The translations under genes and the position numbers were made by a program. From Eledone cirrhosa (lineage: Eukaryota), in contig OZ024743.1 of the NCBI GenBank assembly GCA_964016885.1, positions 171,120,001-171,184,000 of the forward strand: a stretch of DNA of 64,000 bases, read 5' to 3'. Below, piece after piece: positions 5,614-64,000 of the stretch. The number at the start of each line of letters is the position of its first letter. The first letter of the stretch is position 1. The notes beneath the pieces were generated by a model. The model worked only from the letters and a program-made list of their open reading frames with translations. It was not told where the DNA came from and did not search any database.

Positions 5614-5665
<52 letters not shown>

Positions 5666-9200: not shown

Positions 9201-9701
9201 CTATTTTCTTTTCTTGTAGTTTTTTCTTATTCATTCATTCTAATTTCTTATTGAAATGCCTATTGCATTCGTTTCGGGCGTATTTCGTTTCACGTCGGAT
9301 GACGCTCATGAAGTCATCCCTTTCGTTTGGTGTGGTGAGATTTTAGACTTCCTTACCGTTAATGCGTTTCTGTCTGTAAAGTTCGTTGACTTTTGCGTAT
9401 GTTGTTCTTTTCATATTAACTGTTATTGTGTGTTTTAGTCGTTCAGCTTGTGTTTTGTTCAATAATAAATGATTTACTTGTTTTGATATGTTTGTTGTGT
9501 ATATTTTGGAGGAAACACAGTGTTTTAAGAAGCGGATTTGTTCTGTTGTTATTGTAGTTTTTATATAACAGAAACAGTGTCTTTCAATAACCTTTCAGCT
9601 TGGCACAAGCTAGTGCCATAACGGCGATGAATTAGTTTTGCAAGGTTTTTTATATGAAATCGTGTGTCGAAACAAATATTGTTATACTTGGGGAGAGTCA
9701 T
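6203..9701 (-). pseudogene. PLE polyprotein (N-terminal domain, Asn-rich tract, RT, Cys-rich linker, GIY-YIG), disrupted
   Basis: The ATG at 9701 in the pLTR gives MTLPKYNN...LIHRRYG; then IRFLKHC, TDKSG, LYGLRKDHK, MDAVSLYPSI, LPVLD, CxxxxCxxC, YIGETARS and LNRKNEW. There are stops and frameshifts, and a ~290-bp deletion at ~7305 removes GAAIG and YVDD. Confidence 0.88.
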
Positions 9702-9999
9702 ATTTGTGTAATATTGCCAGAATTAATAACAGAACACACTCACTGTTTGGTTGGTTTTCGCTTTTCGCTTCTGTGTCTTTTATATCGGTAATCTAATTTA
9801 TTCGGTCCTCAATGTTGCCATTGACTGACCAACGGTCAAAAATAATACAGATACAATATAGACACAAACACATATATATAGTTTATCAAAGTTCTTTCGT
9901 TGCACATCTGCAACAACATCAGTGGTGCTATTGTTTCCTCCCATTACATTGTATGTCTACGCCATCTTTATTTAGTCTGTTTATATATTTATTTATTTG

Positions 10000-12660: not shown

Positions 12661-13660
<1,000 letters not shown>

Positions 13661-13775: not shown

Positions 13776-13834
<59 letters not shown>

Positions 13835-14333
13835 TCAGGTACACATACATATATGCACGCATCAGTTTAGCGGACGCTTATTATAACGCCGCTTTTTTCG
13901 TTTGTCAACAAACTGAACAGTCTGAATTTATGCCATACGGTGTTAAGGCAACCACGTCACCTTTTTGTTCAACACTGACACAGGAACGATGTACTAGTTT
14001 CAACCTTGTTAGCTATCATCAGCACCGTTTACCCATCTGCCAGATAGTTGAACGTTCGAAAGTATATACTTTCCTTATGAAAGTATATGCATAAGGAAAG
14101 TATTTACTTTCGAACGTTCAACTATCTGGCAGATAGGTAAACGGTGCTGATGATAGCTAACAAGCTTGAAACTAGTACATCGTTCCTGTGTCAGTGTTGA
14201 ACAAAAAGGTGACGTGGTTGCCTTAACACCGTATGGCATAAATTCAGGCTGTTCAGTTTGTTGACAAACGAACAAAGCGGCGTTATAATAAGCGTCCGCT
14301 AAACTGATGCGTGCATATATGTATGTGTACCTG

Positions 14334-14364
<31 letters not shown>

Positions 14365-15353: not shown

Positions 15354-15563
15354 ATATATATATGTATATATATATATATATGTATATATAACAAAGGAAT
15401 TGTGGTAAGGAACCAGATGGACCATAACGCACCAGAGTACTCAATACTTAGGGTAGTAGAGTGGTAAATAGGAAAAAGGATGACCCCGACGGCAGAGCCC
15501 AAGCCGTTTCGACGGCTATTTCTGGACTATATATATATAAGTATATATATATAAGTATATATA

Positions 15564-16460
15564 GTCCCTAGACGCTTTTTGCGTTTAGGGATATATACTT
15601 TATTATTATTATCCTCCTCTTGGTCGAGATAAAATTTGGTCGTTCTGACTGCTGCTATTTATAGTGGTAGTAGACTGACCTCCCTGTTTCTGCTTCTATC
15701 TTTACACCCGGCACTGGACAGAATTGCTTCCACATCAGTCATTCTCATCTCAGGAACAATTTTGAATAGCGCCAGTTCGTAATTTGAACACGGGAATTTT
15801 ATATTCTCCGAGTGAAAAGACCCTTCTGACGAGAGTTTATCTTTTCAATGGAAGGCCGCAAGGACTGTCCATTTATTTTGGAGACTCGAAACCGATTCGG
15901 TAAAGGTACCCATATTGAGTACAGTGAATCTTTTAAAATTTATTTTGAAACTTTTTCTTATTTGCTAAACCTTGATTATATATGTTCAGGCTCGTTAATT
16001 TATTAACCTGCCATTGAACCACATTAGCATATGGTTGGACAATGCATGTGTCCCTAGACGCTTTTTGCGTGTAGGGATATATACTTTATTACTATTATTC
16101 TCCTCTTGGTCGAGATAAAATTTGGTCGTTCTGACTGCTGATATTTATAGTGGTAGTAGACTGACTTCCCTGCCTCTGCTTCTATCTTTACACACGGCAC
16201 TGGACAGAATTGCTTCCACATCATTGATTCTCATCTCCGGAACAATTTTCAATAGCGCCAGTTCGTAATTTGAACTCGGGAATTTTATATTCTCCGAGTG
16301 AAAAGACCCATCTGACGAGAGTTTATCTTTTCAATGGAAGGCCGCAAGGACTGTCCATTTATTTTTGAGACTCGAAACCGATTCGGTAAAGGTAACCATA
16401 GTGAGTACAGTGAATATTTTAAAATTTATTTTGAAACTTTTTCTTATTTGCTAAACCTTG

Positions 16461-16465
<5 letters not shown>
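15564..16465 (+). repeat. 486-bp tandem unit (~1.85 copies) with one hammerhead per unit (retrozyme/PLE pLTR) in (TA)n
   Basis: Units start at 15564 and 16050; CTGACGA at 15826 and 16312. Confidence 0.85.
15822..15906 (+). ncRNA. Type I hammerhead ribozyme (second copy ~16308-16392)
   Basis: CCTT-CTGACGA-GAGTTT...AGACTC-GAAAC-CGATTCGGT-A-AAGG; GUA site. Confidence 0.8.
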
Positions 16466-16529: not shown

Positions 16530-16531
<2 letters not shown>

Positions 16532-16727
16532 CGAAGGAAATGTGGTAAGGAACCAGGTGGACCATAACGCACCAAAGTACTCAATACTTGAGGTAGTAGA
16601 GTGGGTAATAGGAACCAGTAAGACCCCGACAGCTGAGCTCAAGCCGTTTCGACGGCTAATTCTGGACAGAGTCCAGAATTAGCCGTCGAAACGGCTTGAG
16701 CTCAGCTGTCGGGGTCTTACTGGTTCC

Positions 16728-16759: not shown

Positions 16760-16761
<2 letters not shown>

Positions 16762-19553
16762 AGTTTTGCGAGGTTTTTGATATGAAATCGTGTGTCGAAA
16801 CAAATATTGTTATACTTGGGGAGGGTCATATTTGTGTAATATTGCCAGAATTAATAACAGAACACACTCACTGTTTTGTTGGTTTTCGCTTTTCGCTTCT
16901 GTGTCTTTTATATCGGTTAATTTAATTTATTCGGTCCTCAATGTTGCCATTGACTGACCAACGGTCAAAAATACAGATACAATATAGACACAAACACATA
17001 TATATAGTCTATCAAAGTTCTTTCGTTGCACATCTGCAACATTGTCAGTGGTGCTATTGTTTCCTCCCGTTGCATCGTATGTCTACGCCATCTTTATTTA
17101 GTCTGTTTATATATTTATTTATTTGTTTATTTTTTTGTCTTCTTTGCGCATGCGTTTGCGTGTGTGTATAGTGTTTTGTTTGATGTGTGTTCGTGTTTGG
17201 GTGACTATGTATTTGTTAATGTATTCTATCATTACTAGTGTGTGTTTATTGTTATTGTGCTTGTGTATGTATTTATTTATTTATCTATTTATTTATACTT
17301 CTCTTAGGTCAGTGTTGTTTGTTTACGTGTTGTTGTTATTCCATTCATTTTTTCGGTTTAGCCTTGGCCTTCTAAGTTCTATTTCACTGGCCTCTCTGAT
17401 TTGCCTATCTGCTGGGTCATTTCTATGTTTAGATATTATTCTAATTTCTATGTTGTCTATGTTACCGTTGTGTTGTTGTCTGGCATGTTCGTATAGTACT
17501 GAACCGTGTTTCGTCCTTTTAGTTCCCCCCAGTGTTGGTCTATCCTTTCACCTATGCTACGAGCTGTCTCGCATTTGTATGTTGTTGTCATGTTTCTGCA
17601 AGTACCCTCTGTACATCTTATGCTATAGACTACGTTTATAGTTTTACAGTTTATCCGGGGGTTTACCTTACATATGATACATTTCCTATTAGTACAGTGG
17701 GTTTTCTTAAACGGGTAGGTTTTGCTGATCAGGGATTTTATGGTGGTTCTTGGCTTTTCTACCACCTTAATCTTTAAGTGGGTCTTTCTCATGGCCTTTC
17801 TACACTGGTTAGCTAATTTCCCTCCAGGGGTAGCGTCCACAAACATGACACTCTGGTATCCCTGGTTGTCGTACCATGAGGTGGCTCTCCCTATCTTATA
17901 TCTAGCCCTATCTAAGCTATTCCATGAATTGCTCCTGTATAATGGGCAAATTCCTTTCATGTCCAGTTCTATGAGTGTCTTATACTTCTCCGTGGCTCCT
18001 TAGTATACTCTGATTCTGTCTCTTTGGATGTAGCCAGAGAACTGCATGCGGTTGATGAAGTGTTGGATGTGTCTTTCCATTCCTGTTGGGTAGCACATGC
18101 GGGACACATTCTTCATCACTCGTACCAAGTCTGCGATCAGAATATTAAACTTAGCACTACTGGACATTGCTGAGTTTTTGAGTATCAGGTATTTGGAGGC
18201 CATGGGTTTAGTATAGTGTGAGTGGAGAATTTGGGCTCTCTCGTCTATAGTGTTAATCCAGAGTTCCGTGTCTAATACAAGTAGTCTATTGTTAGGGTGT
18301 TTGGAAGGGTAGTCGATAGTTACAGTTATACTCTGGTGTATGGAATTAGCTATCTGCTGGATGCTTTCCATTGTGCTACGTTCTAAATCAAACTTGTTAG
18401 TGCTCTCTTGTGGGGATGTTCTTATTACTATATTGATATCGTCTACATAACGAGAGTACATGATGAGGTCTATGGAGCTCTCATTAAGGAGATCTTTAAG
18501 TCTCCTTTTCCACCATACCATAAAAAGGTTGGCAACGTCACCAGCTATGCTGACGCCAATGGCTGCTCCCTCATTTTGGGTGTAGATCTTCTCGTTGAAC
18601 TTGAATATGTGGCCCTTTAGGATAGTTTTGATACTAGCCCCTATTGCATGTGCGACCATTTTTCTTACCTGAACATTGTTTTGGGGGGTCCGTATAGCTT
18701 TGGTCCACCCAATCCACCTTCCCATGGGAGTCTTTTTAGCCATTGAGGTTATGGTGGGGATTCTACCACTTATGGGTCTACTGGGGCAGAAACGTCTAAG
18801 GTCATGGCTGTCTAGGTAGTCAGTGTCGTAAGTAAGTCTAAGTAGGAGGCCCAGTTCGTCTGTGTCGACGTCGCAGAACTCCACCTCACTCTCAATGATC
18901 ATCTCCACAGATTTTTCCACAGCAAAATCAATGTTAATGGATGGGTACAGTGATACCGCATCCATGCTGCCTATTATGCAGTTGGATAGGTTCCTGTTTT
19001 TGTTGCATTCACTGATTCTGCTGAGGAGGTCCTCTGTACTGTCACATACATCTGGGGACATCTTGATTATGGGGCGTATAACCATTGAGAGGAAGTAGGA
19101 GATCCTGTATTTGCTAGCTATATTAGCTCCGCATACGGGTCTTGTTGGTGGTCCTGTTGTCGGGTCGTCGACTGTCTTGTGCTCTTTGCGGGACCCATAC
19201 AAGGGTTGTATGCCATTGTTAGACGCCTGGAAGCTGTTGGCAGTGCGTCTGCTTGGCTTTAGGATGTCGGTCCATATCATCATGTGAGCGTGGAGGATTT
19301 TCTCTCGCCCATCATGTATTTGCTGTGCAATTTCGCTCGTGTTGGTGATGTGGTTTTGCATAGCCTTGATGTAGTTCGGCATGCTGTCTATTGACATCCT
19401 ACCAGACTTATCCGTGGGTAGACATACTGCCTCACCATCCCTTGTGCGCTGCTTAAGGCTAACCAAGCCTTCTACAGGTTTCCTCCCAAGTTGTTGGACC
19501 TCTGGTCTGCTCTGTCTCTTAGTATACCGGTCTACTATTTGTCTAATCTTATT
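16760..19553 (-). mobile_element. PLE copy 3 (RT ORF 18000-19466, GIY-YIG remnant, pLTR), 5'-truncated
   Basis: Same family as copy 1, with YVDD intact; premature stop at ~18000. Confidence 0.92.
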
Positions 19554-20772
19554 TCAGAGTATACGAAGTAGCCACAGAGAAGTATAAGACCCTCATAGAA
19601 CTGGACATGAAAGGAATTTGCCCATTATACAGGAGAAAATCATGGAATAGCTTAGATAGGGCTTGACATAAGATAGGGAAAGCCACCTCATGGTACGACA
19701 ACCAGAGATACCAGAGTGTCATGTTTGTGGACGCTAACCCTGGAGGGAAATTAGCTACCCAGTGTAGAAAGGCCCTGAGAAAGACCCACTTAAAGATTAA
19801 GGTGGTAGAAAAGCCAGGAACCACCATAAAATCCCTGATCAGCAAAACCTACCCTTTTAAGAAAACCCACTGTACTACTAGGAAATGTATCATATGTAAA
19901 GTAAACCCCCGGATAAACTGTAAAACTAGAAACGTAGTCTATAGCATAAGATGTACAGAGGGTACTTGCAGAAACATGACAACAACATACAAATGCGAGA
20001 CAGCTCGTAGCATAGGTGAAAGGATAGACCAACACTGGGGGGGAACTAAAAGGACGAAAAAACGGTTCAGTACCATACGAACATTCCAGACAACACGACG
20101 GTAACATAGACAACATAGAAATTAGAATATCAAAACATAGAAATGATCCAGCAGATAGGCAAATCAGAGAGGCCAGTGAAATAGAACTTAGAAGGCCAAG
20201 GCTAAACAGAAAAAAATGAATGGAATAACAACACCCAAACAAACAACACTGACCAAAGAGAAGTATAAATAAATAAATACATACACAAGGACAATAACAA
20301 CAAACACATATAAACACACACTAGTAAAGATAGAATACATTAACCAATACACAGTAATCCAATCACGAACACACATCAAACAAAACACTATACACACACG
20401 CAAAGAAGACAAAAAAAATAAAAATAAATATATAAACAGACTAAATAAAGATGGCGTAGAAATTACAATGCAACGGTAGGAAACAATAGCACCACTGACG
20501 ATGTTGCAGATGTGCAACGAAAGAACTTTGATAGTCTATATATATGTGCTTGTGTCTATATTGTATCTGTATTTTTGACCGTTGGTCAGTCAATGGCAAC
20601 ATTGAGGACCGAATAAATTAAATTAACCGATATAAAAGACACAGAAGCGAAAACCAACCAAACAGTGAGTGTTTCTGTTATTAATTCTGGCAATATTACA
20701 CAAATATGACCCTCTCCAAGTATAACAATATGTTTCGACACACGATTTCATATAAAAACCTCGCAAAACTAA
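19554..20772 (+). mobile_element. PLE copy 4 (linker, GIY-YIG, pLTR), inverted relative to copy 3
   Basis: Homologous to ~11470-12660 and extends to GCAAAACTAA + (TA)n. Confidence 0.9.
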
Positions 20773-21776: not shown

Positions 21777-22038
21777 ATATATATGTATATATATATATAT
21801 ATATGTATGTATATATATATGATTAAGTTAAAGTATACATCTACATATGTATACGGAAGTATTAGTATGCATATAAATACACACATGTATACATATGTAC
21901 ATGTACTGAGTTTTTCACTAGACACTTTACAGTGAGTGTCAGCTAGTCTGTACGTAACCACACAGACGGACCGGGTTTTAGAGTCATACGAGTTTTCAAG
22001 GAAACACATTTCCTCTATTCGCCAGAGGGCCAGACAGG

Positions 22039-22083
22039 AATATTGGACTAGTTTCGATGTTATTACATCTCATCAGCAATATT
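22039..22083 (-). ncRNA. Type I minimal hammerhead ribozyme
   Basis: Reverse complement of the 22575-22619 motif. Confidence 0.88.
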
Positions 22084-22574
22084 TACCCATCTTCCGGCTT
22101 CTCTGGAGAATTGTAAAAGCACATATCGTTATATGCTTTTTCTATGAAAATTAGTAGTGGGTAGACTAATTTGCATAGAACGTGAGTCATTGTACGCACC
22201 GGTTCAGCGGAAACGATAAAAACAAATAACGAAACGAAATTAAATTTCGTTTCGCTTCTAACTCACTTTTGTATGACTGACGCTTAAACAATTAAGTTAA
22301 AGTGTACATCTACATATGTATACGGAAGTATTAGTATGCATATAAATACACACATGTATACATATGTACATGTACTGAGTTTTTCACTAGACACTTTACA
22401 GTGAGTGTCAGCTAGTCTGTACGTAACCACACAGACGGACCGGGTTTTAGCTGAACCGGTGCGTACAATGACTCACGTTCTATGCAAATTAGTCTACCCA
22501 CTACTAATTTTCATAGAAAAAGCATATAACGATATGTGCTTTTACAATTCTCCAGAGAAGCCGGAAGATGGGTA

Positions 22575-22619
22575 AATATTGCTGATGAGATGTAATAACA
22601 TCGAAACTAGTCCAATATT
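22575..22619 (+). ncRNA. Type I minimal hammerhead ribozyme
   Basis: AATATTG-CTGATGA-GATGT aata ACATC-GAAAC-TAGT-C-CAATATT; fully canonical core, GUC site after 22612. Confidence 0.9.
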
Positions 22620-23043
22620 CCTGTCTGGCCCTCTGGAGAATAGAGGAAATGTGTTTCCTTGAAAACTCGTATGACTCTAAAACCCGGTCCGTCTGTGTGG
22701 TTACGTACAGACTAGCTGACACTCACTGTAAAGTGTCTAGTGAAAAACTCAGTACATGTACATATGTATACATGTGTGTATTTATATGCATACTAATACT
22801 TCCGTATACATATGTAGATGTACACTTTAACTTAATTGTTTAAGCGTCAGTCATACAAAAGTGAGTTAGAAGCGAAACGAAATTTAATTTCGTTTCGTTA
22901 TTTGTTTTTATCGTTTCCGCTGAACCGGTGCGTACAATGACTCACGTTCTATGCAAATTAGTCTACCCACTACTAATTTTCATAGAAAAAGCATATAACG
23001 ATATGTGCTTTTACAATTCTCCAGAGAAGCCGGAAGATGGGTA

Positions 23044-23088
23044 AATATTGCTGATGAGATGTAATAACATCGAAACTAGTCCAATATT
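23044..23088 (+). ncRNA. Type I minimal hammerhead ribozyme
   Basis: Identical motif 469 nt downstream; site after 23081. Confidence 0.9.
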
Positions 23089-23357
23089 CCTGTCTGGCCC
23101 TCTGGCGAATAGAGGAAATGTGTTTCCTTGAAAACTCGTATGACTCTAAAACCCGGTCCGTCTGTGTGGTTACGTACAGACTAGCTGACACTCACTGTAA
23201 AGTGTCTAGTGAAAAACTCAGTACATGTACATATGTATACATGTGTGTATTTATATGCATGCTAATACTTCCGTATACATATGTAGATGTACACTTTAAC
23301 TTAATTGTTTAAGCGTCAGTCATACAAAAGTGAGTTAGAAGCGAAACGAAATTTAAT

Positions 23358-23505
23358 TAACAAATCAACATCATTGGATACCATCAGAGTTTTCCTTCTA
23401 GAATTCTGCCTTGACAAAGGCTAAGGAGAGATGACCCCTTAGCCTTTGTCAAGGCAGAATTCTAGAAGGAAAACTCTGATGGTATCCAATGATGTTGATT
23501 TGTTA
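23358..23505. repeat. Perfect ~69-bp-arm hairpin with 10-nt loop
   Basis: TAACAAATC...GGCTAAGG agagatgacc CCTTAGCC...GATTTGTTA. Confidence 0.9.
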
Positions 23506-25889: not shown

Positions 25890-28800
25890 CAGGGTGTTCC
25901 AAAAGTATATGTCACATTATGACATTTTATATCTTAGTAACTATTGAGGATATCAAAACAAGTTTTATTTAAACCCTCTCACCAACTACCTCGTAAAATG
26001 CCCCATTTGTTTTTCTAAAATAACAATCTCGTTTGTTTAATTTTGGCCGAAAATTCTAGGATTTATAAAATGGCCTCCTTGTCCCTCTTAATCTTTAACC
26101 CCCCCCCCCCCATATCGTATACGCGCCTGCTGGTTCACCCTTTCAATCACTCCCTTCTCTCACCAAATATAAATAAACCTGTTATGAGGTACGAATCTCA
26201 GAATTTGTCAATGCTTATTAATGGTCAGACCTGCTCACTCTTCTGCGAAATGTAATGTAAAATGCCATTTTTTCTTGTCTCTCCAGCCTATCGGTCCATT
26301 CATTCATATATCCGTATCATCGCCCAGAATCCAATCTTTTGCTCTTCCTCAATGCTATTCTCTAATTCTGTCTGGTTGTTCTAAATAATCTTCTTGTATT
26401 TTAAAATCCCATTATTCGCTTATTACTGTTATATGCTTGTCCAATTATGCCCAAAATTTGAAGATTTTATTTAAACCTTCTTGCTAACTACCCCATACCC
26501 ATCCCACCCGCCCCCACTCTCCACCATTATTATTTGGACCAATCATAAGTCAGCGGCCTATGCTATCACTTCTCCTGGTTGCTTTTCGATATGATGGATG
26601 TACTAAAGAATTCTGGAGAGTCTGAAAAATCTGGACACTCAGTGACAATGCCAAAGATAAAGACAAATTCACCTCATGCTGCCAGACGAAAAGGCAAGGA
26701 CTCCTCCTCTTTGTTTCAGCCGCGGATGGCCAACATAACCCCAACCCCCCTCCCCAACCACCAAACGCAATCCAAAACTTCAGAGTTGGTACCATGAATG
26801 TAGGCACCTTAAAAGGTCGCTCTAACGTGGTTGTAGAAATGCTTGAACGTAAGGAGGTTGATGTTTGCTGTATCCAAGAGACCAGGTGGGTCTGCTAGAT
26901 TCATTGTGGGTAAAAAACGATGCTATAAGCTTTTCTGGGTGGGAAATGACAATGGGCTGGGTGGGGTAGGAATCATGTTAGCAGAAAAATGGGTAGATAA
27001 GATAATAGACGTAAATAGAGTGAACGACAGAATAATTAAAATAAGACTTGTCCTAAATAGAACTACTGTGACAGTAATATCTGTGTATGCACCCCAATCC
27101 GGACTGCCTGGTGCTATAAAAGACAGATTCTATGAGACATTGATGCTCACTACCTCCCAAATAACCAACAGTGACTACATAATTATTACTGGCGACCTAA
27201 ATGGTCACGTTGGACAACATTGTGACGGCTATGACGGAATCCATGGAGGCTATGGGTTGGGTACTAGAAATGAGGAAGGCTTCAGAATCCTGGAATTCTG
27301 TGACGTAAATAACCTAACTATCTGTAACACTAACTTCAAAAAACGAGACAATCACTTGATCACCTATAGATCAGGGGAACACACCAGTCAGATAGATTAT
27401 ATCCTTACCAGAAGACGTGATAGAGTGTCTGTTGTAAACACTAAATCCCTCTCCCATGAAGAATGCACCTCCCAACATAGACTCATAGTCAGGACAAGAC
27501 GTACTCGACAACAGAGGAGGACTATCCCCAGGAGAAAAATATGGAAGCTAAAGGACCCCACAGCCAGTAATAAATTTAAAAGCATATTACTTGATGCTTT
27601 CGACAGTAAGGAAGAGCAATTAGAGTTTTACAATATAGAGGAACAGTGGAAATTCCTGAAAGCTAACGTGCTGAAGGCGGCAGATGAAGTCTGTAGCTGG
27701 AGCAGGCCTATAGGCAGGAGGAGAGTAACATGGTGGTGGAACAGTAAGGTGGAGGAGTCAATTAAGGCCAAAAAGCAGGATTGGAAAGTATGGCGGGATG
27801 GGGGAAGTAGAGAAGACTATCAAGTGGCCAGGAGGGAAGCTAGGAGACAAGTGTACTTCGCAAGAAGGGAAGCAGAGGAAAGAAAGTTCAAGCATGTTCT
27901 ACAACGCGAGGACCAAAAACATGAGGTGTTCAGGATTGCTAGGCAATGTGTCAAAGAAAACCAAGATATTGTCGGGGAGGAGTTTGTACTTAATGACGCT
28001 GATTAGAAGGTAGCTTGGAAGTGTCATTACGAAAGGCTACTAAATGAGGAGAATAAATGGGAGAAAGACAGTCTCCCCCACATCGATCCAATAGAGGGAC
28101 CAGCAGGGCTAGTTGAAGGTAGTATAATAAGTAAGGCAATCAAAGATATGAAGACGGGTAAGGCGGCTGGGCCTTCGGAAATAGTTGCTGAAATGCTGAA
28201 AGCATCTGGAACGGTGGGACACACTCACTATGGTCACCCGGATAGTAAACCAAGTCATACAGAATGGGGCCGTTCCGAAGGACTGGCATAGCAGCATCAT
28301 CATTAACTGCTACAAGGGTAAAGGAGATGCCCTAGATCGGGGTAACTATAGAGGCATTAAATTAATCGACCAGGTCATGAAGGTCACAGAAAAAGTAATA
28401 GCGCAACTAATCAGAGAACAAATTGATCTAGATGAAATGCAGTTCGGGTTTGTGTCAGGTAAAAGTACCACAGACGCTCTTTTCATTGTACGACAACTAC
28501 AGGAGAAGTATCTAGCTAAAAGTAAACCCCTATACTTAGCTTTTGTTGACTTGGAGAAAGCCTTTGACAGAGTCCCCCGTTCCATTATCTGGTGGTCTCT
28601 TAGAAAACTAGGTGTTGATGAATGGCTTGTGAGAGCTATACAAGCCATGTATAAAGAAACAGTCAGCAAGGTTAGAATTAACAACGAATATAGTGAAGAG
28701 TTTAGCGAAAAAGTTGGTGTTCATCAGGGCTCCGTTCTTAGCCCCCTACTATTTATTATTGCCCTTCAGGCTATAACAGACGAGTTCAAGACCGGCTGCC

Positions 28801-31354
28801 CATGGGAACTCCTATATGCAGATGATCTAACGCTCATAGCTGACTCAATGGCTGAACTAGAGAAGAAATTCCAAACATGGAAGCATGGCCTAGAATCAAA
28901 AGGCCTTAAAGTTAACTTGTCTAAGACTAAAGTTCTAGTTTGTAGGAAGGAAAAAAGGGCACCGGTCCCATCTGGGAAATGGCCATGCTTAGTGTGTGGG
29001 AAAGGAGTAGGCAGAAACTCCATTTTATGTTCTAAATGCAAAGTATGGGTGCATAAAAGATGTAGTGGTATCACAGGTAAGTTAACTAAAAATATAGATT
29101 TTATATGTGGCCGGTGCTCTGGTGCAATAAGTAGCAGCAAGTGCTCACAGAATACTAGCTCATTCCATTGCACAGATGGTTCTATAGAAATAGTGGAGAC
29201 CTTCCGTTACCTGGGTGACAAAAACAGCAGTGGGGGAGGGTGCTCTGAAAATGCAGTAGCTAGAGTCAGAACGGGATGGAAAAAGTTCAGAGAGCTTATA
29301 CCACTATTGGCCGCTAAAGGGTTCTCTCTAAAAATGAAAGGCAGGCTGTATGATGCCTGCCTGCATACGAACAGCAATATTACATGGCAGTGAGACCTGG
29401 GCATTGTGTGCAGAGAATATACGCAGACTGGAGAGGAACGAAGCTTGCATGCTCCACTGGATATGTAATAGTAATATATGTGAACGGCAAAGCATAAACG
29501 AACTAAGGGAGAAATTAGGAATAAGAGGGATCAGATGTTGTTTACTCAAGAGAAGACTGCGTTGGTACGGTCACGTGATGCGCATGAAAGACGACAGCTG
29601 TATAAAAAAGTGCAGGGCGATAAAAATAGACGGTAGCCACGGAGTAAGCAGACCCAGAAAAACCTGGGACGACTTGATAAATTCAGACCTCACACACTTA
29701 CACCACTCCAAGACAATGTCACTGGACCGAGATCTTTGGCGCTACACAGTAATACAGAAGACCCGCCTTGCCTAAGTACAAAGTGAAACCTACAGTCAGT
29801 AGGCACCTCTAACAAAAATACACCCCTGTCCCACTACCCCCACCCGATCCACACCATCCCCTTCAATGTGAAGTTATGTTGGTACCACAACATCCAGTCC
29901 GAAACAAATGAGGTCGTGTAGGTGTCATGACAAAAAAACACACAGTCCACGCTGTAATGTGGCCGTGTAGGTAACACGGTAAAAACCTCCCAGTCGACAC
30001 TGTAAACTTAGTTGGTGTTAGCAAGGGCATCCAGCCATAGAAAACCCGCCAGACAGTCCTATACGAGCAGGACAACCAATCTTGCCTCAAGTGGGAAAAC
30101 TCCCGTCCAAACCCATGCAAGCGTGGGAGATGGACGTTAAACGATGATGATGATGAATTTACATTTCCTGAAAGTTAATATTTTAAAGTGTCTGTACAAA
30201 AAATTTGAACACAAATGTGCAAGAAATTAATTTATTATTAGATGTGTTCAATGTGATTGCCACAGGTTACACGACACACATCCAAATGACAATCCATTTC
30301 TTCACAAACACGACCTAGCATTGCGTTGTCAATGGTTGCAAAGGCTTCAGTTATTTGAGTCTTCTGGTCATCCACGACTCTGAGAAGGGGAGTACGCACA
30401 CCAGGTCTTTTACATACTACCAGAGGAAGAAATCACATGGCATGAGGTCTGGGGACCTAGGGGACCATCACAAGAGCACGCGATCAGTTTGTCCGGAATG
30501 TCCGATCCATCAGTCAGAGTGGTGTTCAGATACTTTCTAACTCTAAGCCTCCAGTGAGGTGGTGCCTCAGCCTGTTGGAAAATGAAGTCTTTTCTTCATG
30601 CAATTCATCCATCAACCAGTTTTGCAGCATGGCAAGATAGACTTTACCATTGACTGTTTCTCCATAGAAGAATGGTTCATACACACATTTCTTTGACATG
30701 GCACAGAACACGTTTACTTTAGGGGAATCTCACACATGTTCAAGAGTTACATGAGGTTATGCGTGTGATATGCTTGTCAACTTTGTCACTTAAGTAGAAG
30801 GTCGCCTCATCACTGAAAACAAGCCAATCATCAAATTCGTCATCTTCTAACTTCTCCAGCATATCTGTGCAAAATTCATAGTGAGCTGGTTTATCAGTGT
30901 CCAACTGTTGAACCAATTGCAGCCTGTAATGTGTCATATGCAGTAGTCTCCTTAAAATGTGCCAAACAGTTGTTGATGGGAGCTGAATTTCTCAACTGGC
31001 TCTTTTGACTGATTTCTGGGGGTTCCACTGGAAGGCATTTTGAACTTGTTCAACCGTATCATCTGAAGATGAGGGGCATCCTGTTTTCTTTGCCGGGCAC
31101 AAACACCCCTCCTCCTTAAATTTTGCCAATTCAAAATGGAACGTCTGTCTGGTGGCTGCTTTGTAAACTGTGTATGAAATTTGCGTTGAACACGTGTCCA
31201 TGACTCAGTTTTAGTGAATTCTAGGAAGCAAAACGACTTTTCTTGTTTTGTGAACAGCATTACTGGATCTGAAAAGAGACAAAAGAAAAATGGTACCATT
31301 TGTAGTTCATGATATATGAGTTCTTTGAATGTGACATACTTTTGGAACACCCTG
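25890..31354 (-). mobile_element. Tc1/mariner DNA transposon (transposase remnant ~30250-31260) interrupted by an RTE LINE
   Basis: TIRs CAGGGTGTTCCAAAAGTAT..GTCACATT at both ends with TA TSDs (25888-89 and 31355-56); VFSDEATF motif and SPDL-type motif in decayed frames. Confidence 0.88.
25971..30155 (+). mobile_element. Near full-length RTE-clade LINE (APE, RT, PHD finger), frameshifted
   Basis: VGTMNVGTL, GDLNGHVG, SQIDYIL; NYRGIKL, FVDLEKAFDRV, GVHQGSVLSPLLF, LLYADD; (GAT)n tail; a short ATTT repeat at both junctions. Confidence 0.92.
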
Positions 31355-34825: not shown

Positions 34826-37800
34826 CATCATCATCATCATTATCGTTTAACGTCCATCTTCCACGCTAGTATGGGTTAGATGGGAGTTGTCCCAATTTGA
34901 GGCAAGGTTGGTCGGGTGACCGTGTCATGCTCATATAGGACTGACTGGCAGGTGTACTACGGCTGGATGCGCTTCCTAACACCAACCACATTTACAGTGT
35001 GGACTAGGAACTTTTTACCATGTTACCTACACGGCCACATTACAGCGTGGACTGTGGTTTTTTGTCGTGACACCTACACAATTTCAATCTCATTTATCTC
35101 ATTTATTTGGACTGGATGTTATGGTACCAACTTTACAGAGAAAGGGTGGTGTTGGTGGGAGTAGGGGTAGCGGATTGGGGTGTATATTTGGTTAAGAGGT
35201 GCCTACTGACTGTAGGTTTCGCTTTGTACATAGGCAAGGCGGGTCTTCTGTATTACTGCGTGGCTCCAAAGACCTTGGTCTAGTGACATTGTCTTAGAGA
35301 GGTGCAAGTGTGTAAGGTTGGAATTTATCAAATTGTCCCAGGTATTTCTGGGTCTACCTACTCCGTAACTTCCATCAATTTTGATCGCCCTGCACTTTTT
35401 TGTGTCAGCTGTCGTCTTTCATGCGCATCACGTGACCATACCAATATAGTCTTCTCTCAAGTAAACAGCATCTGATCCCTCTTATTCCTAATTTCTCAAT
35501 TAGTTCATTTATGTTTTGCCGTTCACATATATTACTATTACATATCCAACAGAGCATGCATGCTTCGTTCCTTTCCAGTCTGCGCAGGTCCTCTGCACAC
35601 AATGCCCATGTCTCACTGCCATGTAGCATTGCTGTTTGTATACAGGCATCATACAATCTGCCTTTCATTTTTAGAGAGAAACCTTTAGCGGCCAATAGTG
35701 GTATAAGCTCTCTGAACTTTTTCCATCCCGTTCTGACTCTGGCTACTGTACTTTCAGAGCACCCTCCACCACTGCTGATTTTGTCACCCAGGTAACAGAA
35801 AGTGTTCACTATTTCTATAGAACCATCTGGGCGATAGAAGGAGCTAGTATCCTGTGGGCACTTGTTACTTATTGAACCTGAGCATTGGCCACATATAAAA
35901 TCTACGTTCTTAGATAGCTTACCTGTGATCCCACTACATCTTTTATGCACCCATACTTTGTATTTGGGGCATAAAATGGAATTTCTGCCTACTCCTTTCC
36001 TACACACTGAGCATGGCCATTTCCCAGAGGGGACCTGTGCCCTATTTTCCTTCCTACATACTAGAACTTTAGTTTTGGACAAGTTAACTTTAAGGCCTTT
36101 TGATTCTAGGTCATGCTTCCATGTTTGGAATTTCTTCTCTAGTTCAGCCATAGAATCAGCTATGACAGTTAGATCATCTGCGTATAGGAGTTCCCATGGG
36201 CATCCGGTTTTAAACACCTCTGTTATAGCCTGAAGGATAATAATAAATAGGAGGGGGCTAAGGACAGAGCCTTGATGAACAACTTTTACACTAAATTCTT
36301 CACTATATTCATTGTTAATTCTAACCTTACTCACCGTTTCTTTATACATGGCTTGTATAGCTCTCACAAGCCATTTATCTACACCTAGTTTTCTAAGAGC
36401 CCACCAGATAATGGAGCGGGGGACTCTGTCAAAGGCTTTCTCCAGGTCTACAAAAGCTAAGTAGAGGGGTTTACTTTTAGCTAGGTACTTCTCCTATAGT
36501 TGTCGTGCAAGAAAAAGAACGTATGTGGTATTTTTACCTGACACTAACCCAAACTGCATTTCATCTAGATCTATTTGCTCTCTGATTAGTTGTGCTCTAA
36601 CACTTTCTGTGACCTTCATGACCTGGTCAACTAACTTAATGCCTCTATAGTTTCCCCTATCTAGAGCATCCCCTTTACCCTTGTAGCAGTTAATGATGAT
36701 GCTGCTACGCCAGTCTTTTGGTATGACCTTATTCTGTATTACTTGGTTTACTATCCGAGTGACCATAGTATGTCCCACCATTCCAGATGCTTTCAACATC
36801 TCAGCAACTATCTCCGAAGGCCCAGATACCTTGCCTGTCTTCATATCTTTGATTGCCTTACTTATTATACTACCTTTGACTTACACCGCTGGTCCTTCTA
36901 TTGGATCGATTTGGGGCAGACTATCTTTTTTCCATTTATTCTCCTCATTTAGTAGTCTCTTGTAGTGACACTTCCAGGCTATCTTCTTATCAGTTTCAGT
37001 GACGGCAAGTACACCATTATCATTATGGACACACTTCTCCCTGACAATATCACGGTTTTCCTTGACATATTGTCTAGCTATCCTGAACACCTCACGTTTT
37101 TGGTCCTCACGTAGAACATGCTTGAACTTTCTATCCACTGCTTCCCTTTTTGCAAAGTACACTTGATAGTGTTCTCTACTTCCCCCATCCTTTCATACTT
37201 TCCAAGCCTGCTTTTTGGCCTTGATTGACTCCTCCACCTTACTGTTCCACCACCAAGTTACTCTCCTCCTGCCAATAGGTCTGCTCCAGCCACAGATTTT
37301 ATCAGTCGCTTTCACCAGGTTAACTTTCATGAATTCCCACTGTTCCTCTATATTGTACGTCTCTAATTGCTCTTCCTTATTGTCAAAAGCATCAAGTAAT
37401 AAGCTTTTAAATTTGTCACTGGCTGTGGGGTCCTTCAACTTCCATATTCTTCTCCTCAAGGTAGTCCTCCTCTGTTGTCGAGTATGTTTATTCCTGACTA
37501 TGAGGTCACTAACTACCAGGCTATGTTGGGAGGTGCATTTAGTGTTTACAACAGACACTTTGTCATGTCTTCTAGTAAGGATATAATCTATCTGGCTGGC
37601 ATTCTCCCGTAATCTATAGGTGATCAAGTGATTTTCTCGTTTGTTGAAGTTTGTGTTACAGATAGTTAGGTTATTAGCATCACAGAATTCCAGGATTCTG
37701 AAGCCTTCCTCATTTTTAGTACCAAAGCCATAGCCTCCATGGATCCCATCATAGCCATCACTATGTTGTCCAACGTGACCATCTAGGTCGCCATCAATAA

Positions 37801-38341
37801 TTAAGTAGTCGCTGTCTAGCGTGGAAGATAGATGTTAAATGATGATGATGATGATGTCGGTTATTTGGGAGGTAGTGTGCATTAGCGACTCATAGAACCT
37901 GTCCTTTATAACGTCAGGTAGACCAGAATGGGGTGCATAATCTGATATTACTGTCACAGTAGTTCTATTTAGAACTAGTCTAATTTTAATTATTCTGTCA
38001 TTCACTCTATTTATGTCAATTACCTTATCTACCCATTTTTCAGCTAACATAATTCCTACTCCACCCAGTCCGTTGTCATTTCCCACCCAGAAAAGTTTAT
38101 ATCGCTTTTTACCCACAATGAATCTAGCAGACCCACCTCTCCACCTAGTCTCTTGAACACAACAAACATCAACTTCCTTAAGTTCAAGCATCTCTACAAC
38201 CTCGTTTGAGCGACCTTTCAATGTGCCTATGTTCATGGTACCAACTCTGAAGTTGGGTGGGTGGAATGGATGGGATAGAGGGGCAAGGGGGACGGAATTA
38301 TGTTGGTCATCCATGTCTGAAATAAAGAGGTGGGGGGACAA
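34826..38341 (-). mobile_element. RTE-clade LINE, decayed, same family as 25971-30155
   Basis: APE, RT and PHD fragments in ORFs 37835-38341 through 35405-36367; (GAT)n tail at ~34826-34845. Confidence 0.92.
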
Positions 38342-54137: not shown

Positions 54138-54138
<1 letters not shown>

Positions 54139-57100
54139 GAAGAAATATTGTAAGAAAAAAGTTACTAACTGATATAGAAATTGATCAGATCAAGCTAGTA
54201 GCACAAAGTCAGCGAAGGGAAAATGAAGCATGTGTCAGTGAAAACGAGGTAAACTGTAACACTTCGAATCCCAGAGTTGGGGCGGAATCACTGGCAACAG
54301 AACAAATTAAAGAAAGGAGCGAAAAAGTGGAGGGAGTGCATGCTCAGGATGAAACTCCAAATGAAAATAATGAGATCGTAAATGATAAAGAAATGAATGA
54401 GAATGAACTTGCCAACTTGAAGGATGAAATTATGATCGAATGGATGAAAATGAAAGAATCTGACATGGGGGAACGAGACACCCTCCCTAAGATCCAGAAC
54501 TCCAAACAGAACCAAAAGATAATACACAAGACTAACACAATTCTCAAAAACATTATCATCACAAACAAACTAAGCATTACTGACTTAAATCATCTCTATT
54601 ATGCATCGGCTAAAGTCACCACTCACTTATGTGGAGTGAAGATGAAAAAACAAAGGAATTCCCACAAGAAATCTACTTGGCAAGATAACATCAATCGCCA
54701 AATAAACCTTCTCCGATCTGACATAGAAATTTTAACAAACTATAAAGTAGGTGAACATGTTAAACAAACTAAACTTAGAAAATTGAAAAAAAAGTACAGT
54801 ATAAGATCAACATGTGACATAGACATGCTGATAGAAACAATCAAGCAAAAAGTGTCGGCCAAAGCTGCTCGTATAAGGCGCTTTGAAAAACGATCTAGAT
54901 TCTATAAGGACAATAATATGTTCAAAAACAACCAAAGAAACTTCTACAGAAAAATTGGTAAGTCAACAATAACTGCTAAATCAATACCACCCAAGGAGGA
55001 AGTGCAAGAATTCTGGGAAAAGATCTGGGCCGAAGAAAAAGTTCATAACATACATGCCCCATGGATAGACAGACAAATGAAAGAAACAGCTCACCTTGAA
55101 GAACAAACATGGGAAAATATAACAGTTGAACAGCTGCAAATGGAAATCCCCTGCAAATGGAAATCCCCAGGAAAAGACAAAATACAAAACTTTTGGATAA
55201 ATGCCTTCACAGAGTCTCATGAGCTGTTAGCCCAACTTTACAATGAAATAGTTAAGGAGCCAGAAAAGATACCATCATGGCTAGTTAACGGCATTACATT
55301 CCTGCTACCGAAGAATGATGAGACAAACAATCCCAAAAATTACAGACCGATAACCTGCTTGACCACAATGTATAAAATTTTAACATCAGTCCTAACTGAA
55401 TACACATATGACCACCTGATAACAAATGACCTATTTCCCATTGAGCAGAAAGGGTGTAAACGAGGCTCATATGGCTGTAAGGATCAGCTTCTGGTTAACA
55501 AAATGATACTGGAAGATTGTCATAATAGACACAAAAATCTATCGATTGCTTGGATAGATTATAAAAAAGCATTTGATAGTTTGCCACACAGTTGGATTGA
55601 AAAATGTTTAGAGATTTTCAAAATATCCCCCGTTATCAGGAGGTTTTTGTCATTCAGTATGAGGACATGGAGAACGACACTCCTTTTGAATAGTGAAACA
55701 AAATCACTGGAAGCTGGAGAAGTTAACATTAATTGTGGAATTTTTCAGGGTGACTCTTTATCACCGCTTTTATTCTGCATCGCACTTATACCATTAAGTA
55801 AAATGCTCAATGAAACAAAACATGGATATAGAGTCTATGACAAAACCATTAATCACCTGTTCTACATGGATGACCTGAAACTATTTGCAAAAAATGATGA
55901 ACAATTGCAAGGGCTATTATCCACTGTGAAGCAGTTCAGTGATGACATTAAAATGGAGTTTGGACTGGATAAATGCGCCAAAGCAACGTTCACCAGAGGA
56001 AAGCTGCTGAAGAGTTCAGACATTAATCTTGATCGGGGGAACGTGATAAGAGAGCTTGATCAAGAACAAACTTACAAATATCTAGGTGTTTGTGAAGGAG
56101 ACGGAATCAAGCACTCGACAATGAGGGAAAGGATAAGGAAGGAATGTTACCGCAGAGTCAGAGCAATCTTAAGAACGGAATTGAATGCAAGGAATAGGAT
56201 CGATGCCATAAACACGCTTGCCATACCAGTAGTAACCTACAGTTACAATGTCATCAACTGGTCAAGCACAGAGATCCGTAGGCTCGATACAAAAATCCGA
56301 AAATTCTTAACCATGCACAGAATGCATCACCCTAAGGCAGACATAGATAGAATATATCTCCCTAGGAAAGAAGGAGGACGTGGGTTAATCCAGTTAGACA
56401 TTGCGTTGAAAACTGCAACAATTGGATTATCCACATATCTAAGGGAATCACATGATTGGATGATCAAACTCGTTTTGAAACACGAAAGCACCAAAAGATC
56501 ATATTCCATTACAAAAGATGCACAAAGATACAGTAATGGACTACAAATTTCAGAAGTCCCATTTACTGCTGAAATGGAAAACACAGAAAAAGCAAAGCAG
56601 GTAAAAGTAACTGCAAAGAAAGAACTGCTACAGAAACTGGCTAAGAAATGGCAAGAAAAGCCTCTGTATGGAAAATACCCAGAGCGAGCTAACAATCCTG
56701 ATGTTGACAAAACTTTAACCCATCAGTGGTTGGCATCCTCTGGACTGAAATCGGGGACTGAAGGACTGATTATATCCGCACAAGATCAGTGTCTGCCAAC
56801 AAAACATTACCAAGCCAACATAATAAAAAATGGGTGCAGCCCATTATGCCGTGTATGCAAAAAACAACCAGAGACCATTGACCATATAATTTCAATGTGC
56901 AGTCCTATAGCTCCAACCGAATACCTAAACAGGCATGACAGAGCTGCACAATACATACATTGGATAATGTGCAAGCATTTTGACCTGCCCCATCAAAAGA
57001 ATTGGTGGGAGCATCAACCACCTCCCATACTTGAAAAAGATCACATCTCAATCTTGTGGAACTTTAGCATCCAAACAGACCGAAAAATAGATGCAAATAG

Positions 57101-57413
57101 ACCTGATATAATATTGAAGGACTTTCAAAGGAGGGTATGCCTGCTAATTGATATGTCTGTTCCAATAGACAAGAATGTATCTATAAAAACATTTGAAAAA
57201 TTGAGCAAGTATAAGGACCTGGAGATAGAAATTGGAAAAATGTGGAAATTGAGAACTAAAACAATACCAGTGGTTGTAGGCGCTCTGGGAATGATACCTA
57301 AGGGGTCTAACGACTACTTATCGCAAATCCCAGGAAACCCGCGTATAGGAGAAATACAAAAGATAGTACTAATGGGAACTGCCCATATACTAAGGAAGAT
57401 CCTGTCAATATAA
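54138..57413 (+). CDS. R4/Dong-clade non-LTR retrotransposon ORF (RT, CCHC knuckle, restriction-like endonuclease), 5'-truncated but uninterrupted
   Basis: Open from 54138 (RRNIVRKKLLTDIEIDQIK); NYRPITCL, WIDYKKAFDS, GIFQGDSLSPLLF, YMDD, CRVC...HIISMC, RHD, RPDII...D...K; (TAA)n on both sides (54081-54137 and ~57553-57570). Confidence 0.93.
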
Positions 57414-57565: not shown

Positions 57566-58179
<614 letters not shown>

Positions 58180-59103: not shown

Positions 59104-59690
59104 TTAATCCGTATGGTGAGGAAATGGGGTCCCACGTGCTGGCCTCCCCACAGCCCCAGCGGACAGTTTGGAGAAGGCCTTTCCCCAGAGGAAGGTAAGG
59201 GAGATGCGCTGGAAGAGCCATTCCAACTCGCGAGATTCACACTTGCGGCTGGCCACCTCAGCGCCTATGGTGGTGAATAGAGAGGTAGCCCTAGGGCCAA
59301 GGACACCAGAAGTCTCCACTGCCAAGGGTACGACCGCGAACCTATCGGAGAGCGACCGGTACTTGGAGAGTTTGGCTTCCTCAGCCTGACGTGCAGCAGT
59401 ACCAGGGTTAGTCGCAGACTGCACCAGGTTGCGGCTGGGGTAAGTGTCGCTGCAAGTGGCATCACAGACGAGGGGTTTGCCACCGGAGAACGGGAAGATG
59501 GTCATACCGTCTGGCCTTTTGCCATCCCTCGGTCCAGCACCACCGGCTCGAGCTGGGAGAGGAAGCCTGCAGCGTCCAAGCCATGCTTAATGACCTTGTT
59601 GAGGACAGCATGGCGTGGAACGCAGCCGGCACTGTGGCGACAGGAAAGTGGGTGGAGACCGAAAGAGTCCACGGTCGATCCACAGTACAT
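59104..59690 (-). mobile_element. CRE-clade non-LTR remnant (CCHC/RH and RLE), frameshifted
   Basis: HPLSC...RHAVLN...LEP; DATCSDT...K..KY...PLAVETSG...LFQRISL. Confidence 0.8.
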
Positions 59691-61858: not shown

Positions 61859-62296
61859 CTATTTGAAGCTAAATTTTAAATATATATATATAGAGAGAGA
61901 GTAAGTAAATATTTAAATTATATTTTTTAATTTATTTTAAAAAATTATTTGATTTTTGCTTGTTCTGCTATCTCAATATTATAGTTCTGGTATGTCAAAT
62001 TAATACCATTGAACAACCCTGTATCATAGACAACCTATATATTTCCAGGGGTACTTAGTACCCGTGGGCATATTAACTTCTTTTAATATTCTCCGTTATG
62101 TCGAGAACAAATCTGTTGTTCTATTTAGCTGCTATTTTTAGTAGTGTAGTAGACAACACGTCTATGTTTACTTCCGCTTTTGCTACGGACTAGTTCATGT
62201 ACAGGTCAAATTTTGGCCTCACTCGATCTTGTGCTAGCTAGCAGATGGCAATATATTTTGCCGTTCCTGGGACTTTAGCCCTAGGAAAGGAAAATG

Positions 62297-62377
62297 GTTC
62301 TCTGATGAACTTTACTTTTCCATTAGAAATCCCATGGATTTCTAATGTTTTGTAAAGGGAAACCGATCGGTAAGAGC
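62297..62377 (+). ncRNA. Type I hammerhead ribozyme with extended stem II
   Basis: GTTCT-CTGATGA-a-CTTTAC...CATTAGAAATCC cat GGATTTCTAATG...GTAAAG-g-GAA-ACCGATCGGT-A-AGAGC; palindromic stem III; GUA site after 62372. Confidence 0.82.
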
Positions 62378-62782
62378 AACTTAGAGTAAGTAAATATTTA
62401 AATTATATTTTTGAATTTATTTAAAAAAATTGTTTGATTTTTGCTTGTTCTGCTTATCTCAATATTATAGTTCTGGTATGTCAAATTAATACCATTGAAC
62501 AACCCTGTATCATAGACAACCTATATATTTCCAGGGGTACTTAGTACCCGTGGGCATATTAACTTCTTTTAATATTCTCCGTTATGTAGAGAACAAATCT
62601 GTTGTTCTATTTAGCTGCTATTTTTAGTAGTGTAGTAGACAACACGTCTATGTTTACTTCCGCTTTTGCTACGGACTAGTTCATGTACAGGTCAAATTTT
62701 GGCCTCACTCGATCTTGTGCTAGCTAGCAGATGGCAATATATTTTGCCGTTCCTGGGACTTTAGCCCTAGGAAAGGAAAATG

Positions 62783-62863
62783 GTTCTCTGATGAACTTTA
62801 CTTTTCCATTAGAAATCCCATGGCTTTCTAATGTTTTGTAAAGGGAAACCGATCGGTAAGAGC
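62783..62863 (+). ncRNA. Type I hammerhead ribozyme, second tandem copy
   Basis: Same motif 486 nt downstream; site after 62858. Confidence 0.82.
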
Positions 62864-62974
62864 AACTTAGAGTAAGTAAATATTTAAATTATATTTTTTA
62901 ATTTATTTTAAAAAATTGTTTGATTTTTGCTTGTTCTGCTTATCTCAATATATATATATATATATATATATATT

Positions 62975-63076
62975 TACGGGGTAACAAATAATAGTTAAAT
63001 GCAGTCCACTTAGGTAAAGTCCAGTTATGGTATTCCAGGTAGTGGACTGCATTTAACTATTATTTGTTACCCCGTA
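62975..63076. repeat. 36-bp perfect inverted repeat with 30-nt spacer at the 5' end of the Naiad ORF
   Basis: 62975-63010 is the reverse complement of 63041-63076. Confidence 0.9.
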
Positions 63077-63125
63077 TATTTAGCTCCCACCTGGTCGAGC
63101 AACACCATTAACGCACGGCAACAAC

Positions 63126-64000
63126 ATGGAGAAGCACCGTATAGGTATGTCACTGAAAAACATACCTATACCTACAAAAAAAGGACTATACACTGGGCAT
63201 GATACGACGGACTAATGATTTCATCCGCAGGGTCCGATGGAAAGCTTACCATTTCGATAAGGGACCGAATACCAACGGAAAGGAATTTTCTAAGGAGAAT
63301 TACGGGTTTAAATCCTGCAAAAACCCGCCAAACAACCCCGCACTCGATGCCTTCGAGCTGGACCTTATGAACATGATAAGTGAAACTAAATTTAAAAAAG
63401 GAACAAATCACAACAAATTGCAAAATGACTTAAATATATTACTAAAAAAACTAAAAGACACTAACGGTATCATAGTAAAAGCAGACAAAACATCAAACGT
63501 ATACTCTATGGACATTAACACATACAATAGCTTTATCCAGCGTGAACTACATAAACAATATAAAAAAACAAATGAATCTACACTCACCAGCATTAACATG
63601 GAGGGCCTCAAGATAGTTAATAAACTCGGAATTCCAGATAGGACCGAACCACTAACCCCGTGCAACCCAACATTTAACCTGAAGCATCACAAAAATAACT
63701 TTGAAACTAATCCCACCATTAGATTAATATGCCCATCCAAGTCAGACATAGGTAAAATTAGCAAGAACATTCTAGATAGGGTAATCGCACAAATAAAGGG
63801 TAAACTAGAAATCAATTTATGGGGCAACACTAACGAGGCATTTAAATGGTTCAATAAAATACAAAATAGGGAGACGTGTAACTTCATACAATTTGATATA
63901 GACGACTACTATGCATCCATATCCCCAGCTACCCTAGATAAGGCGCTTATATTTGCCCAAAATAACTCTGATCTTACCCATGATGAAATTGAAATAATAA
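63126..64000 (+). CDS. Naiad-type Penelope-like RT, N-terminal part (runs off the window; one extra A in the A7 run at ~63176-63182)
   Basis: Manual translation: MSLKNIPIP / RRVRWKAYHF / ENYGFKS / ADKTSNVY / KHHKNNF..P.IRLICPSKSDIG / QFDIDDYYASI; open from 63181 to the window end; absent from the ORF track. Confidence 0.85.

Follow-up and report, generated by a model that had tools for sequence, protein, structure and literature searches.

Within a stretch of 64,000 nucleotides of the Eledone cirrhosa genome (contig OZ024743.1, hereafter the window), a tandem array of non-coding units with hammerhead motifs lies directly upstream of an open reading frame (ORF) for a Penelope-like element (PLE) reverse transcriptase (RT), and a TA tract separates the two. 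The question raised by this locus is whether the array is a part of the element, was brought in together with it, or arrived independently. An earlier, sequence-only reading had taken the ORF for that of a Naiad-type PLE and a partner of the repeats, with the caveat that the TA tract may point to a separate insertion. Here we characterize the array and the ORF, compare the element with its relatives, and weigh the possible relations between the two (Table 1).

Table 1. Features of the array, the adjoining element and the sister array (window coordinates).
Feature	Position	Strand	Remarks
Sister array of the retrozyme kind, period 486 nt, ~60% identity with the unit, 3' end in (TA)34	15563..16462	+	
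Retrozyme-type array, non-LTR kind, 2.2 copies of a non-coding 486-nt unit	61898..62948	+	Repeat call, motif search, comparison
Type I hammerhead 1	62297..62377	+	Predicted cut after 62372; long stem II, palindromic stem III
GTTC..GAAC hairpin, candidate variant of the Hydra hairpin	62470..62500	+	7 nt past the internal equivalent of the array 3' end; weak score
Type I hammerhead 2	62783..62863	+	Predicted cut after 62858
(TA)12 tract	62949..62972	.	Putative shared insertion target
Probable 3' tail of the Hydra element (36 nt) as an inverted copy that runs into the TA tract	62975..63010	-	Read from the layout of relatives; L011 alike
Hydra element, probable direct stub of its pLTR, with a hairpin-1-like segment and the tail to the second 3'-end site	63011..63076	+	
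Hydra hairpin 2 (GCTCC..GTCGAGC)	63083..63100	+	At -43 relative to the ATG
5' ~40% of a Hydra-clade PLE ORF (RWK, DKT, RT motif A FIQFDI)	63126..64000	+	A7 frameshift; window edge cuts the ORF

The 486-nt unit and its hammerheads

The tandem repeat call covers positions 61898-62956 with a period of 486 nt, 2.2 copies and 98% matches, and the two full units are identical at 480 of 486 positions, in agreement with the repeat structure described before. The array begins about 10 nt past a hammerhead cut position; about 90 nt past the last cut it gives way to (TA)n. TA is found on both of its sides. The unit contains no plus-strand ORF of 50 aa or more, and the monomer taken from cut to cut is non-coding, has a GC content of 34% and folds as a self-paired circle (z -6.6, 60 shuffles). 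Comparison of the unit with 11 other regions or orientations gave no clear similarity, as 4 and 7 of 200 shuffles scored as high in the best two cases.

Both hammerheads of the array have an intact CUGAUGA/GAAA core, a 5-bp stem I and the stem III ACCGATCGGT, and their stem II region is branched, 55 nt long and closed at its base by an A.G mismatch. Such a motif was produced by none of 5000 dinucleotide shuffles of the unit; the two hammerheads are absent from the Rfam matches at E<=0.01. The single motif has an inactive minimum free energy (MFE) structure, with its core paired to stem III, whereas the two motifs cofold into a double hammerhead at -55.7 kcal/mol, compared with -45.5 kcal/mol for two monomer MFEs. 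The dimer competence claimed for these hammerheads therefore holds in silico, and the cofold result fits, as a prediction, the dimer model of the hammerhead presented in the accessible text of PMC4209133. At least two consecutive tandem units each carry a complete type I hammerhead, and under the working definition given in the accessible text of PMC7229834 and bioRxiv 10.64898/2026.07.22.740005 the unit is most likely a non-LTR retrozyme, as judged from these sequence features. Within the 64-kb window the family is represented by this locus and by one sister that is about 60% identical.

Assignment of the open reading frame to the Hydra clade

The ATG at 63126 reads MEKHRIGMSLKNIPIPTKK, and a long frame at 63157-63999 is stop-free for 281 codons and open at the window edge. 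The ATG frame is shifted by one base relative to the long frame across the A7 run at 63176-63182, as expected for the single homopolymer frameshift proposed earlier, and the spacing in homologues after SLKNIPxP fits six A residues. The ORF track presumably overlooked the ORF because its frame runs off the window.

A homologue search among 1.84 billion representatives yielded 128 proteins matching at E<=1e-30. The best homologue is 44% identical, and relatives are only about 30-45% identical in protein. Most matches listed begin at about residue 17-24 of their own sequence; the ORF aligns to its relatives from the first Met, which leaves no room for an N-terminal endonuclease. Among 150 matches listed, 25 are 650-920 aa long, and these have RW-x near the start in 20, DK[TS] in 24 and a C-terminal CxCx4-7C in 23 of the 25 cases. 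C-terminal cysteine motifs are found in 137 of 142 long proteins of a wider set, which was partly gathered with a profile of the first matches, and full-length relatives carry a C-terminal GIY-YIG domain. Pfam returned nothing in the window ORF; on 11 relatives it placed GIY-YIG above the cut-off in two and weakly in one, and RVT_1 weakly in one. A PDB sequence search gave no meaningful match, and a search for longer homologous proteins found none among 2169 candidates. The exact 22-nt hammerhead pattern had no match in metagenome contigs, and 139 pattern matches in viral contigs included no relative.

In the accessible text of PMC8557442, the Hydra clade is characterized by RWK, a DKG->DKT change, a C-terminal CxCx5C linker, GIY-YIG without CCHH, a canonical hammerhead in the pLTR and a (TA)n target, and Naiads by an N-terminal GIY-YIG domain, CxC and DKA, with no canonical hammerhead. 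The window ORF contains RWK (VRWKA) and DKT (KADKTS), and its translation has no CxC before ADKTS. The DNA upstream of the ORF, in which an N-terminal GIY-YIG domain was sought, is non-coding, and neither this DNA nor the unit is matched by the Hydra protein profile, endonuclease included. The Naiad identity was rejected on these grounds, namely the RWK and DKT motifs, the absence of an N-terminal endonuclease with alignment from the first Met, and the Naiads being without canonical hammerheads. By its motifs and domain order, rather than by phylogeny, the ORF is that of a Hydra-clade PLE. What stands of the partner named in the sequence-only reading is thus a Penelope-like RT, PLEs being the proposed partners of such repeats; the Naiad clade does not.

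A phylogenetic tree that took in no Naiad or named Hydra reference groups the ORF with proteins P0001, P0003, P0006 and P0010 (support 0.84), with an outgroup too distant for a reliable root. One of these four nearest proteins is from Argonauta hians, and the C-terminal CxCx5C linker and GIY-YIG domain are present in P0003 and P0010. Profile comparison of the ORF family with the other PLE RT of the window was not significant, which makes the latter a poor outgroup. The RT motif A aspartate is present, and 37 of 43 conserved columns are kept (33-43 in intact relatives, median 42). Together with the 281 stop-free codons and the identical arms of the 36-bp inverted repeat described below, this number of kept columns fits a fairly recent copy, yet one that is frameshifted and has about 40% of its ORF in the window.

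Layout of Hydra-type relatives

Among 86 related loci, both ORF ends could be mapped in 52, of which 41 have a hammerhead. Their common plan consists of the hammerhead cut, a spacer of 39-57 nt (21 loci), hairpin 1 of the form GCTC..GAGCAC, a similar hairpin 2 that mostly follows at a spacing of 37-47 nt, and the ATG. All 20 relatives that have a hammerhead upstream show a distance of 138-185 nt from cut to ATG. Of the 43 loci with at least 120 nt upstream, 39 contain one or more GCTC..GAGCAC-type hairpins and 25 contain two. The 3' copies of the relatives pass into (TA)n shortly before one or the other of the two hairpins, and in the 7 of 21 loci where 3' ends were mappable on the upstream copy they lie 7-14 nt before GCTC, two of these seven ends (L022 and L029) possibly being short internal AT runs.

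A covariance model (R1) recovered six held-out hairpin matches at E<=1.5e-3, in five of nine further loci; its training set had been chosen by a motif regular expression, and its covariation amounts to one pair in one sequence. Locus L008 has a GTTC..GAAC form at the hairpin-2 position, which is absent from the R1 held-out matches. None of the 11 loci with at least 900 nt upstream has a non-coding multi-hammerhead array there. Hydra-type PLEs were also seen in nine contigs of prokaryotic genome assemblies (L078-L086), several of them symbiont- or host-associated records, and these contigs are probably host DNA carried into bins.

The TA tract and the inverted repeat

Both the short TA tract and the 36-bp inverted repeat of the sequence-only reading were recovered, the former as (TA)12 and the latter with perfect arms at 62975-63010 and 63041-63076 (z -13.6). 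The right arm forms the spacer before hairpin 2, and the left arm enters (TA)n 8 nt short of the hairpin. The same layout, (TA)n - inverted tail - direct pLTR - ATG, is found in L011, and an inverted 5'-truncated copy beside the upstream pLTR is common according to the accessible text of PMC8557442. Based on these observations and the architecture of the relatives, the inverted repeat is most likely the 3' tail of the Hydra element itself, present in inverted and direct orientation. The inverted tail ends in (TA)12, as for a (TA)n insertion.

Hairpin 2 of the window lies at -43, relatives having it mostly at 36-52 nt, and its matrix score ranks second among 3118 window candidates; the covariance model recognizes it weakly (E 0.33). 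The hairpin-1 segment of the element is an atypical GTCC..GGAC with a hairpin-1 matrix score of -1.9, unrecognised by the motif models. The 5' stub of the element stops short of the expected hammerhead position.

Relation of the array to the element

We consider it probable that the locus contains two separate insertions in one TA microsatellite, a non-LTR retrozyme array and, to its right, a Hydra-clade PLE of which the 5' part is present, so that the caveat attached to the earlier proposal turns out to be its better reading. The unit shows no similarity to the inverted repeat and 5' UTR of the element (score 23 against a shuffled mean of 22.6, with 86 of 200 shuffles as high). It is unlikely that the unit represents the 3' UTR or pLTR of this element, given that the inverted repeat, in which we recognize the element's 3' tail, has no sequence in common with it. 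A sister array of equal period without a Hydra ORF, together with the missing similarity between unit and tail, argues for a separately inserted retrozyme. When the 18 TA tracts of the window were inspected by eye, at least 11 were seen to border on PLE-type ends or fold-backs, and in a window so dense in PLE-type insertions at TA tracts the adjacency needs no special link. Counting against separation, the tail is recognized from architecture, and the downstream end of the ORF lies beyond the window. With relatives at 30-45% protein identity, the lineage of the element may have another layout, and the succession in both 486-nt arrays of (TA)n and an inverted Hydra-type 3' end could reflect coupled insertion.

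Under separate insertion, the likely events would be as follows: i) transcription of the array and cleavage at both hammerheads, which are predicted to act best as a dimer, would release a 486-nt monomer; ii) the strongly self-paired monomer could circularise; iii) as the array encodes no protein, its copying into (TA)n would be carried out in trans by the RT-endonuclease of a PLE; and iv) target-primed reverse transcription would have brought in the Hydra element, with the usual inverted and direct copies of its 3' tail left at its 5' end as the 36-bp inverted repeat. Nothing ties the mobiliser of the array to the adjoining Hydra copy, in which the assembly shows a frameshift. A rival partner of the retrozyme is another PLE, represented in the window by four copies that are 90-97% identical and end at (TA)n.

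Two other accounts would link array and element directly. In the first, which is the sequence-only reading in its strong form, the unit could be a partial tandem of the element's own pLTR or 3' UTR, and the TA tract and the inversion would mark the junction. The array is on the strand of the element, 180 nt from the ATG; all Hydra elements carry hammerheads and target (TA)n, and stem III is perfectly palindromic in 8 of the 44 hammerheads of relatives. Long 3' UTRs do exist, with stop-to-cut distances of 502 nt in L005 and 549 nt in L022 and a length of about 490-660 nt in the Hydra-type fragment at 4006-4905, and unit length was accordingly dropped as an argument against a pLTR. We nevertheless regard this origin as quite improbable, given that the unit resembles neither the tail nor the 5' UTR and that its geometry falls outside the ranges of relatives: cut to ATG is 267 nt versus 138-185, cut to the first hairpin 97 nt versus 39-57, and the stem II span 55 versus 10-31. 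Moreover, the circular junction and the period are kept in the ~60% identical sister, as fits a self-contained monomer and not a one-off truncation. Alternatively, both parts may have arrived in one event, by a template switch of the RT of this element family onto retrozyme RNA, which would make the family the actual partner. Such an event would account for the adjacency in one TA tract, for the change from consensus shared by GTTC..GAAC in the unit and GTCC..GGAC in the element, and for the inverted Hydra-type end that also follows the sister array. It is unlikely, if less so than the pLTR origin, because TA lies on both sides of the array and two 3' ends enter the tract from opposite sides, implying two primings, because the sister array is followed by an end of another family, and because most TA tracts of the window carry such stacks.

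Mobility of the array as RNA can itself be questioned, as a satellite could have grown from a dead ribozyme fragment through unequal crossing-over or slippage. The A.G mismatch that closes stem II and the inactive monomer MFE would suit such an origin, as would the eight of nine predicted Xenopus retrozymes that were uncleaved in vitro according to the accessible text of 10.64898/2026.07.22.740005. We give it little credence in view of the sharp 3' ends into (TA)n at a matching position in two families and of the conserved core, period and self-pairing (z -6.6 for the unit and -3.9 for the sister); moreover, a mismatch at the stem II base is frequent in Hydra hammerheads (U.U in 21 of 44). Two insertions, with the retrozyme moved as RNA, remain our preferred reading.

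The sister array and a hairpin variant at retrozyme 3' ends

The sister array aligns with the unit with a score of 130, as compared to 30 after shuffling (none of 200 shuffles as high), has its hammerhead at the same position and is followed by no Hydra ORF. It has a canonical G-C at the stem II base, and its second hammerhead is altered in stem I. A short element flanks it on both sides (15391-15527 and 16531-16727), the second copy of which ends in a fold-back; on the minus strand this element has an ACTC..GAGT variant of the Hydra hairpin, the best model match in the window (E 0.0016).

In both 486-nt families, the 3' end is followed after 7 nt by GTTC..TTGAAC, a candidate variant of the Hydra hairpin in which pairing is kept; the unit contains a second copy of it at 61984-62014. 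A further, hairpin-2-like motif follows in both families about 75-80 nt on, at about twice the hairpin spacing of Hydra. The hairpin-1 matrix scores the unit hairpin at 11.6 (training median 27.8; 28 window positions reach at least 10) and has no match to the sister hairpin, the loop of which exceeds the length limit set. R1 did not find the GTTC..GAAC hairpin of the unit and assigned E 1.3 to another unit hairpin at 62076-62114. The chance estimate of 0.0006 per 8-nt slot is post hoc, the GTTC..GAAC pattern having been loosened after inspection of the unit, and the two families, being related, count as one event. The 469-nt hammerhead array of the window has no such motif after its end.

A variant hairpin 7 nt past the 3' end of both families hints weakly that a Hydra-type enzyme mobilises them in trans, and on the sequence features at hand the balance tips somewhat towards such an enzyme as the one that would have moved the array. 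A more specific model, which we put forward as a tentative possibility, is that Hydra PLEs mark their RT start sites with twin hairpins 7-14 nt downstream of the 3' ends, and that the 486-nt family keeps the compensated GTTC..GAAC form at precisely this distance to hijack the Hydra RT-endonuclease in trans. If true, this would define a cis signal for an animal retrozyme and name the clade of its partner.

Other mobile elements in the window

The region at 3298-4905 contains a Hydra-type endonuclease C-terminus (4006-4242) with a long 3' region, in which a decayed hammerhead with a stem II of about 100 nt is found; its inverted copy precedes it. The four copies of the other PLE (5663-12667 and 16760-20772) are partly broken and form two inverted pairs; they encode an RT and a C-terminal endonuclease-like region, and each 3' end is at a TA tract. 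The 469-nt hammerhead array is located at 21822-23358 (Rfam HH9, E 4.6e-4); an inverted arm precedes it, and a palindrome of 148 nt follows immediately. A 506-nt palindrome between TA tracts (13832-14337) has one hammerhead per arm and a GTTC..TTGAAC hairpin after each cut site. Long fold-backs bounded by TA tracts, in which no ORF or hammerhead was found, are present at 1214-2884 and 57693-58179. Further retroelement ORFs (26703-30156, 34831-38333, 54138-57410 and 59104-59586) comprise a pair of oppositely oriented LINE-like copies, an RT frame of 1091 codons and a C-terminal fragment. The locus is most likely an ordinary stack of known kinds of mobile elements, represented by new families and brought together by a shared target.

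Comparison with known systems

The Naiad label of the element is to be corrected to Hydra. PLEs as mobilisers or ancestors of retrozymes have been proposed in PMC7229834 and 10.64898/2026.07.22.740005, whose accessible text proposes, rather than shows, a PLE that mobilises animal retrozymes and its RNA signal. The twin hairpin in most Hydra-type loci and its variant past the retrozyme 3' end constitute a specific candidate signal that could be tested in vitro. No description of the twin hairpin was found in the literature searched or in the main and supplementary text of PMC8557442; figures, subscription papers and bioRxiv supplements may bear on this point. Within these sources, the putative twin-hairpin signal is not mentioned, and PLEs as retrozyme partners or ancestors are already in print.

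As described in the accessible text of PMC8557442, members of the Hydra clade such as Hydra-1_Obim share with the window element the RT-first ORF, RWK, DKT, the (TA)n target and a 5'-truncated copy that lies inverted at the 5' end, and with relatives of its ORF the C-terminal CxCx5C linker and GIY-YIG domain. By eye, the ORF is colinear with Hydra-1_Obim from the first Met. It differs in being a separate family, with a best match of 44%, and in its frameshift; a D-to-H change in KDHK is common to the ORF and P0001. Naiads, in the same source, resemble the element in the PLE RT, the (TA)n preference and a frameshift-prone A-rich stretch, but none of their protein traits was found in the window ORF.

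The array shares with the non-LTR retrozymes of PMC7229834 and 10.64898/2026.07.22.740005, as far as their accessible text describes them, non-coding tandem units with one type I hammerhead each, a GC content below 45%, a self-paired monomer and co-occurrence with PLEs. The 486-nt unit is longer than the 170-400 nt RNAs of the former and within the 51-972 bp range of the latter; as a retrozyme predicted from sequence, it is distinguished by its 55-nt branched stem II with the A.G base. The closest parallel to the twin hairpins is provided by the Poseidon element PAc, for which the accessible text of PMC11167929 reports two measured RT start sites flanking a 'tail'. Like the Hydra relatives, PAc has two alternative, RNA-internal 3' ends about 40-60 nt apart near stem-loops. 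It belongs to another clade, and its sites are within the ORF, whereas the putative Hydra sites, predicted from DNA comparison, precede two near-identical hairpins in the 5' UTR.
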